Source of the DNA: a virus
Lineage: Duplodnaviria > Caudoviricetes
Length of the DNA: 64,000 nucleotides
Reading direction: 5' to 3' (one strand)
IMG/VR virus record: IMGVR_UViG_3300029305_005547
Span: 214,850-278,849 of that record
Shown: positions 56,900 through 57,273 of the stretch, one piece after another
Position numbering within the stretch: position 1 is the first letter of the stretch
Layout of the letters: every line of letters begins with the position of its first letter
Position numbers and translations under genes: made by a program
The notes under the pieces: model-generated
Seen by the model: only the letters and a program-made list of their open reading frames with translations
What the model was told of the DNA's origin: nothing
Database searches by the model: none

Positions 56900-57273
56900 T
56901 TTTCCCATTATAATAGCCAAGAGGAAACCGTGGTGTCATATAACCTAACCTTTTTACCTTGGATTTTATAAACAATTTACATCCTTACATCTGAATATTC
57001 ACATTTAAGTGGATTTATCAATCTCTGATAAATCCTACTAACAGGTTACATATAACATCTGACATATAACATTTAACATTTAATGAATGTGGATTCGAAC
57101 CACCGATACGCAAGCTTGATTAAAAGTCAAGGGCGTATAACTTCTCCAAAATCTGTTATTGACTCAATACGTTGGAGTATTGAAGTTATATGGTGGGAAA
57201 GCTATATTTATTTTACATCTCTGAACTTACCCAACAGGATGATATGATTCGGGTTTTCATCATAATAGGAAAA
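56900..57273 (-). ncRNA. Structured ncRNA, copy 2 (7-nt repeat array plus tRNA-Lys anticodon-arm/T-arm mimic)
   Basis: Closing stem UUUUCCUAUUAU/AUAAUGGGAAAA; core homologous to 38905-39324; begins 11 nt after the stop of 57285..58013. Confidence 0.75.

Follow-up and report, generated by a model that had tools for sequence, protein, structure and literature searches.

In the trp leader, the TRAP protein binds 11 G/UAG triplets separated by 2-3-nt spacers, with the number of triplets equal to that of the ring subunits, while the non-coding RNAs CsrB/RsmZ and CrcZ carry many copies of a short motif and titrate an RNA-binding protein. HutP is described as a hexamer with three sites per face, its target being two groups of three XAG triplets, with 4 nt between triplets and a stem/linker between the groups (PMC2425495). 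Here we report, from the last 64 kb (the whole stretch analysed, hereinafter the window) of a 278,849-bp virus record (IMGVR_UViG_3300029305_005547; G+C 32%), a previously undescribed folded non-coding RNA of ~400 nt, which lies outside any named family and is present in two copies in a giant rumen phage. Both copies are on the minus strand and take their bounds from a closing helix: copy 1 spans 38905-39324 (420 nt) and copy 2 spans 56901-57272 (372 nt). In RNA order, the element comprises a variable 5′ domain, an anticodon-arm-like hairpin, six heptads built on UGU, a further hairpin, a less regular UGU-rich stretch, and a short helix beside the closing helix.

Of the described systems, the HutP target in the hut terminator RNA of Bacillus subtilis resembles the element in its 7-nt period (a triplet plus a 4-nt spacer) and in having two clusters that flank a stem/linker. 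It differs in that the element uses UGU followed by nA rather than XAG, gathers six units in one block rather than three plus three, and belongs to a closed RNA of 400 nt located 3′ of a gene, whereas HutP acts on a 5′ leader terminator. As in HutP- and TRAP-type targets, the triplet recurs at short intervals, here UGU every 7-8 nt, six times, in all four distinct elements compared below and in a presumably single-stranded block; its place 3′ of a gene, within a closed RNA, is not that of a 5′-leader terminator/antiterminator, and none of the 272 open reading frames (ORFs) of the phage matches a HutP/TrpBP-family ring protein (Pfam, E<=1e-5). The likeness to the TRAP track lies in periodic triplets with slightly variable spacers, single-stranded there and putatively so here, while period, motif, and copy number all differ. 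The sponge RNAs CsrB/RsmZ and CrcZ share with the element the many copies of one short motif; however, the motifs of these RNAs, GGA in loops or A-rich, lack a strict period, and the element has no Rfam match. As for a discrete RNA of that kind, contigs from RNA libraries in two studies match the extents of the element, these contigs carrying no information on strand, ends, or level. Type III toxin-antitoxin systems (ToxI-like) have ~36-nt tandem repeats beside an endoribonuclease toxin gene; the unit here is 7-8 nt and the neighboring genes have no toxin-family match. A search of the window against Rfam 15 gave no match at the gathering score and, at E up to 10, chance-level rows only, and in literature searches on phage structured RNAs and decoys we found no description of the element. 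IMG/VR has been surveyed for candidate structured RNAs (PMC10690425); the main text of that survey mentions neither repeats nor jumbo phages nor topoisomerase, and its supplementary tables might list the region.

A closed RNA read from the minus strand

A prior reading made from the sequence alone (hereinafter the sequence-only reading) had pointed to an array of ACA words at each of the two sites and read it in RNA sense as UGU. The array sequence is present as quoted at both sites, and in alignment the similarity between the two sites runs well past the arrays. For comparison, three relatives were located via topoisomerase, G001 (73 kb), G002 (275 kb, with direct terminal repeats), and G003 (250 kb). 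G002 and G003 have a homologous element upstream of topoisomerase, at the position of copy 1, measuring 457 nt and 385 nt, respectively; that of G001 is identical to the one in G002, so that four distinct sequences were compared (copy 1, copy 2, G002, and G003). The two ends of each element are joined by a 15-bp helix (P1), which is present in all four predicted folds: in copy 1 the 5′ strand at 39310-39324 pairs with the 3′ strand at 38905-38919 (15 pairs including three G-U), and in copy 2 the strand at 57258-57272 pairs with that at 56901-56915. The closing motif occurs nowhere else in the whole record and is therefore not a general promoter. Enclosed by P1 are the short helix P2 with its loop (copy 1, 38921-38966, stem CCAUC/GAUGG; copy 2, 56917-56962, stem CCAAG/CUUGG), the central hairpin (copy 1, 39015-39040, with a 7-bp stem; copy 2, 57011-57035, with a 10-bp stem), and the anticodon-arm-like hairpin (39112-39130 in copy 1), all on the minus strand.

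These four helices vary in sequence while keeping their pairing. Registered by hand over the four sequences, they contain 121 Watson-Crick pairs, 12 G-U pairs, and four A-C appositions, all of the latter at one position immediately outside P1. Read from the plus strand, the G-U pairs would turn into 12 C-A mismatches; hence, the RNA sense is the minus strand, which bears out the earlier choice of UGU over ACA as the motif, and the minimum free energies favor the same strand in all four elements. The copy 1 closing helix covaries with those of copy 2 and G003: its core is AUAUA/UAUAU in copy 1 and AUUAU/AUAAU in copy 2, with both strands changed, and in G003 UUUCC/GGAAA is replaced on both strands by UUCUC/GAGAA. 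P2 has four pair sets in four sequences, all of which pair (CCAUC/GAUGG, CCAAG/CUUGG, CCUUC/GAAGG, and CUUGG/CCAAG). The central hairpin has three unrelated stem sequences among the elements; the two copies have identical stems and different loops, and in G002 and G003 the sequence differs with the pairing kept. In a MAFFT alignment of the four sequences, 94% of 116 cells in the four helices are paired, compared with 38-49% once the partners are shifted; both sides are changed in 14 of 32 pairs, and none of 500 shuffles attains any of the observed covariation measures. This alignment misaligns the 5′ strand of P1 in copy 2 (set aside as gaps) and the second helix in copy 2 and G003, for which its counts are unreliable and the hand-registered count stands instead; whole-element MAFFT alignments misplace the copy 2 5′ strand and the G003 hairpin. 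The array, in sum, sits in a structured RNA read from the minus strand.

There are also signs that the element is expressed in rumen and gut metatranscriptomes. A run search with 38300-40000 as query returned eight RNA-library runs from two studies, of which four were mapped onto 38200-58100; the runs were chosen for containing part of the query, and copy 2 lies outside it. All four runs, from both studies, have a contig on copy 1 (38866-39304, which is an entire 440-nt contig, 38905-39135, 38988-39285, and 38965-39233), and two of the four have a contig on copy 2 (56867-57259 and 56903-57134). Among the pieces listed, the two elements account for the two longest over these 20 kb, of 439 and 393 nt, and the sole piece that one run (X3) has on the stretch falls in copy 1. 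The contig ends at 38905 and 56903 lie at the outer edge of the closing helix. Most of the 20-kb stretch is without contig cover, and the uncovered parts carry no weight. The arrays thus fall in a region recovered by RNA-library assemblies, in agreement with the RNA involvement proposed by the sequence-only reading. Two strain variants are weakly consistent with the RNA model: one at 38961 would convert a possible G-U pair at the inner end of P2 to A-U, and one at 57047 falls at a free heptad position.

The six-unit heptad block and its distribution

In RNA sense the six-unit arm of the array lies 5′ of the central hairpin, at 39041-39088 in copy 1 and 57036-57082 in copy 2 (minus strand; it is the second arm when the array is read on the plus strand). 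The strict 7-nt period claimed by the sequence-only reading holds for the copy 2 six-unit arm only, which has six UGU with spacings of 7,7,7,7,7 (six ACA exactly 7 nt apart at 57041-57082 on the plus strand). It fails for the copy 1 six-unit arm, with five UGU plus one degenerate unit, one 8-nt unit, and spacings of 7,7,15,7, and for the five-unit arms 3′ of the hairpin in both copies (38968-39014 and 56964-57010, minus strand), each with four UGU, one degenerate unit, one 8-nt unit, and spacings of 14,8,7. On both strands of the 278,849-bp record, no chain of at least four ACA with 7- or 8-nt spacing exists besides the copy 2 arm; in 20 mononucleotide shuffles of the record the longest chain had four units, reached in only four of the 20. 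With one degenerate unit allowed, chains of at least five are seen only at the elements in the three genomes (two in the record, one in G002, and one in G003).

The six-unit arm of G002 has six units spaced 7,8,8,7,7 and that of G003 six units spaced 7,7,8,8,8, with a seventh past an inserted hairpin; the block accordingly has six units in all four distinct elements while the spacing drifts between 7 and 8 nt. Across the 24 UGU units of the six-unit arms, an A stands two bases after the UGU (+4) in 24 of 24, including every unit of copy 2, and directly before it (-1) in 19, while the base between UGU and A is free (U13, C4, G2, A5). The consensus heptad is aUGUnAn, with five constrained positions. 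The spacers differ among units, so that simple slippage does not account for the array, as the sequence-only reading had held. The tolerance of 7 or 8 nt fits a flexible strand laid on a protein better than duplex DNA.

The other arm behaves differently. The identical 5+6 architecture described by the sequence-only reading holds between the two copies, partly through common descent: over 73 nt comprising the five-unit arm and the first arm of the hairpin, copies 1 and 2 are 84% identical (family D9), and the kept positions of the irregular units there are therefore inherited. In the relatives the five-unit arm is not kept, the number of its UGU units being four in copy 1, four in copy 2, three in G002, and two to three in G003, with A at +4 in 10 of 14 units. 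In copy 1 (z = -2.4) and G002 (z = -4.4) it is moreover complementary to the 5′ domain, forming a predicted long-range helix whose sequences differ on both strands; in a duplex z test it has no significant 5′-domain partner in copy 2 or G003. Since the five-unit arm decays and pairs elsewhere, the conserved object is one block of six rather than a 5+6 array. The constant count of the six-unit block fits the fixed-stoichiometry, single-strand track that had been proposed, and the version with two hexamers or a dodecamer on 5+6 units is not supported; counted across homologs, the six-unit arm is constant and the five-unit arm varies.

The anticodon-arm-like hairpin directly precedes the six-unit block on its 5′ side. 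Its stem has 5-6 bp, and its 7-nt loop is CUCAUAC in copy 1 and G002, CUUUUAA in copy 2, and CAGUUAA in G003. Between G002 and copy 1 the loop is the same and a stem pair is changed on both sides. The copy 1 arm presumably resembles that of initiator tRNA. Run at relaxed settings, ARAGORN recognizes in copy 2 a degenerate tRNA-Lys(ttt), a tRNA-Lys(UUU)-like cloverleaf at 57080-57158 (minus strand; anticodon arm at 57114-57132) whose 3′ acceptor strand extends into the array, and a mini tRNA-Met(cat) in G002; it makes no call in copy 1 or G003, and none in any element at default settings. What the finder recognizes is therefore not a tRNA gene with a passing cloverleaf: the forms are degenerate, in two of the four elements, and emerge at relaxed settings only. 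This tRNA-like arm and the larger closed RNA around the array had no place in the sequence-only reading. By default ARAGORN settings there are no tRNA genes in the window or the whole record, and Pfam finds none of the RNA-repair enzymes named below, which together is unusual for a phage of 279 kb.

The element has a narrow distribution. An nhmmer profile of its 3′ module has four matches only, two in the record and one each in G002 and G003. It has no match in three metagenome relatives, which encode the protein upstream of copy 1 (165 aa) at 34-42% identity with topoisomerase directly next, and 20 further relatives among viral contigs (topoisomerase 36-61% identity) have neither a profile match nor a UGU chain within 2.5 kb of the gene. 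These 20 viral-contig and three metagenome relatives have the same gene pair with a short terminator only. The site of copy 2 is empty in G002 and G003: the product of the gene at 57285-58013 has orthologues there, at 52% and 43% identity, respectively, with no array downstream. Copy 2 is similar to copy 1 in its 3′ half and to G003 in the hairpin loop region. Judged from these sequence comparisons, the element family appears young and narrow, and copy 2 a lineage-specific second insertion. At the position of copy 2 G002 has an 11-bp long-range inverted repeat, GGGCATGAAGT ... ACTTCATGCCC (L133 ~2297-2425), enclosing ~110 nt, which may be another small structured RNA.

Wider searches recovered no further copy. 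A blastn search with 56700-58200 against a phage collection gave no match; the 57285-58013 product found no relative in viral contigs, its orthologues coming from the relatives' own records; and a pattern for the 3′ end of the element found only the three known records in viral contigs. A hairpin pattern had four matches in viral contigs, all by chance and inside coding sequence. Four tandem TGTNANN with at most one mismatch had no match in the available whole records of nine more distant relatives, a weak negative for a pattern that recovers two of the four known elements. The pattern of five ACATnnn units matched at least 120 loci in viral contigs, nearly all perfect microsatellites and none like the element; in five unrelated viral contigs (L016, L051, L091, L100, and L106) a perfect (ACATTTA)5-6 microsatellite precedes the start of one and the same conserved gene by ~15 nt.

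Candidate binders and competing explanations

We interpret the element, with moderate confidence, as a processed non-coding RNA in which the six heptads form a single-stranded track with several sites, to be occupied by a hexamer or a cooperatively binding partner. On this interpretation an RNA of 370-460 nt would be made from the minus strand 3′ of a protein gene, probably by co-transcription with it, and would be trimmed to a stable species that ends in the 15-bp closing helix. The block would offer six equivalent sites, one per 7-8 nt, to be taken by a hexameric ring or a cooperatively binding protein of host or phage, and the RNA might titrate or scaffold that protein after the manner of the HutP/TRAP periodic triplets and the CsrB-type RNAs. 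The sequence-only reading had put forward the product of 57285-58013 as the binder. This candidate is not supported: the only family that it matches is PHROG 1491, labeled 'tail fiber protein' (E = 1.6e-24), with Pfam matches below the cut-offs; copy 1 follows an unrelated gene; and the G002 and G003 orthologues lack a downstream array. The gene upstream of copy 1 encodes a basic, Cys/His-containing protein of 165 aa with no family, also found in relatives without the element. As the phage ORFs match no known RNA-binding family, the binder of the heptad block may come from the host.

Several observations weigh against this interpretation. In thermodynamic folding the unpaired probability is 0.34-0.43 in the arms and 0.34-0.40 elsewhere, and in copy 1 and G002 stretches of the array are able to pair with the 5′ domain. 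The constant six could reflect a short divergence time, with four distinct sequences from closely related phages. The 272 ORFs, compared with Pfam at E<=1e-5, include no HutP, TRAP, Hfq, CsrA, or cold-shock match. Assembled contigs give no strand, true ends, or reliable depth, the runs were preselected by the query, and DNA can occur in RNA libraries. Finally, co-transcription with the upstream gene is uncertain because a terminator-like hairpin (39358-39329) lies just 5′ of copy 1.

That the arms are predicted to be no more accessible than their surroundings would also suit an architectural role, in which the heptads are not protein sites and serve RNA-RNA pairing in alternative registers with the 5′ domain or with an RNA in trans. 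The complementarity of the 3′ arm to the 5′ domain in copy 1 and G002, with both strands differing, points the same way, and in copy 2 an 8-nt box in the 5′ domain, read from the sequence, is complementary to a word present twice in the six-unit arm. However, the six-unit arm itself has no significant partner (z of -0.2 in copy 2, -0.6 in G002, and +1.0 in G003), and UGU and A recur periodically while the letters between them vary freely, which is not how the strand of a helix evolves; we regard this role as unlikely. An effect purely in cis, with the fold only stabilizing or terminating the upstream mRNA and the recovered RNA a decay-resistant remnant of no function in trans, would agree with the position of both copies directly 3′ of genes that share a promoter-like upstream motif (family D10) and with the terminator-like hairpins on both sides of copy 1. 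Yet the genes upstream of the two copies are unrelated, the 20 and three relatives noted above keep the gene pair with just a short terminator, and a stabilizer leaves a periodic five-position motif at six copies unexplained, so that we find this explanation rather improbable. A long shot of similar standing is that the heptads are decoys of anticodon loops. They would be six or more linear mimics of U33-G34-U35-N36-A37 that, together with swappable anticodon-arm hairpins (CAU, UUU, and GUU), absorb or block anticodon-reading enzymes; the targets, a surmise in which we place equally little trust, would be host anticodon nucleases, e.g., colicin-E5-like ones in phage defense, or tRNA-modifying enzymes. 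UGUnA is characteristic of the GUN tRNAs (Tyr, His, Asn, and Asp), with every N seen here, the 7-8-nt period equals the size of an anticodon loop, and the track adjoins hairpins with a 5-6-bp stem and a 7-nt loop, which in copy 2 and G002 give the relaxed tRNA-Lys(ttt) and tRNA-Met(cat) calls. In addition, this 279-kb phage has no tRNA genes, and Pfam finds no RNA ligase, RtcB, or polynucleotide kinase (PNK) among its 272 ORFs. Position 32 of anticodon loops is usually a pyrimidine, whereas A precedes UGU in 19 of the 24 units; the match amounts to a four-letter motif and a period; the units are not displayed in hairpin loops; the G003 loop CAGUUAA lacks U33; and no such nuclease is known for the host. 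The element shares with tRNA anticodon loops and the targets of colicin E5-type nucleases the letters UGUnA, the 7-nt unit, and the tRNA-like arm beside the track, and differs from phage tRNAs in having no intact tRNA, linear units, and mostly A before UGU. The four GUN tRNAs are the substrates of colicin E5, which is described as requiring YGUN, with UQU common to the four, and as cutting linear RNA, though less well (PMC1635277). Phage tRNAs as counter-defense have been published (PMC10264068, PMC11555353), and in literature searches we found such tRNAs and no decoy RNA of this sort.

Two further explanations dispense with an RNA function. In plasmids, the omega repressor binds a centromere of 7-bp heptad iterons, and tubulin-based partition systems have iteron clusters. 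The element resembles both in that its repeats are clustered at a 7-bp period and occur at several sites of the replicon, and could by analogy hold duplex sites for a replication initiator, a partition adaptor, or a repressor: the repeats form two clusters about an inverted repeat, the genome has two copies, and copy 1 has a tubulin-family gene (42168-43337) ~3 kb away and topoisomerase genes next to it. Unlike such iterons, it lacks constant in-phase spacing, the drift of 7-8 bp among orthologues breaking helical phasing, and has only five of seven positions constrained; the flanking helices covary, with G-U pairs sensible only as minus-strand RNA, the region is recovered from RNA libraries, and copy 2 has no adjoining replication or partition gene. 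We therefore hold DNA-level iterons to be very improbable. The array might finally be a neutral relic, an old slipped microsatellite decaying in a duplicated spacer, and heptamer microsatellites of the ACATnnn type are indeed common in viral contigs, at the 120 or more loci noted above; this explanation is hard to credit, given that UGU and A are fixed in 24 of 24 units over four elements in which the variable positions have diverged, and that the count stays at six. A further idea, that the heptads mimic the template strand of phage promoters, was dropped: the words enriched in upstream regions were GATATATTATTT and GTAAGTCTCGATATTT, and none was of the ACA type.

Giant phages have hardly been explored for large structured non-coding RNAs, and the element reported here is unusually testable, as its motif can be mutated and its block shortened unit by unit. 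If the partner of the heptad track is a ring protein, it would add a new RNA-protein recognition code beside those of HutP and TRAP; if the heptads instead mimic anticodon loops, they would represent a new class of phage counter-defense, RNA-based and of a kind not yet described.

Genomic setting

The record belongs to a phiKZ-style giant phage. A Pfam scan of its 272 ORFs recovered split pieces of the RNA-polymerase beta/beta′ subunits, an anaerobic ribonucleotide reductase, and a GH25 lysin, and the RNA and DNA sequencing runs containing parts of it are labeled bovine gut or gut metagenome. In the window the two subunits of a type II topoisomerase (33376-38322, minus strand; Pfam) adjoin copy 1, and the tubulin-family gene is on the same strand (Pfam). 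Between copy 1 and the topoisomerase gene is an ORF of 79 aa with no family on the opposite strand (38531-38767, plus), followed past the 3′ end of copy 1 by terminator-like hairpins within 38777-38870, one at 38807-38777 on the minus strand and one at 38843-38870 on the plus strand. The G001 and G002 topoisomerase large subunit (L125/L126 4001-7684) differs from that of the window: the match to the 824-aa protein covers 3684 nt, and the first ORF ends after 112 aa, from which we deduce a probable insertion of ~1.2 kb in a gene that is uninterrupted in the window; candidates for the inserted piece are an intron, an intein, and a homing element.

Many genes have the promoter-like word GATATATTATTT (in gene sense) upstream, e.g., at 39976-40004, 58087-58115, 16796-16824, and 60963-60996 of the window. 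Word enrichment found TATATTAT in 37 upstream regions as against 4.2 expected, and a second enriched word, GTAAGTCTCGATATTT, in about nine; a scan for sigma-70-like promoters showed no excess over shuffles. Elsewhere in the window, a NUMOD4 homing-endonuclease-like gene (14037-14636) is surrounded by direct-repeat pairs (13925-15528), one of 86 nt at 95% identity and one of 118 nt at 83%, and a 1467-aa tail-fibre-repeat gene (27435-31838) contains tandem repeats of 267 nt and 129 nt at 29972-31613.

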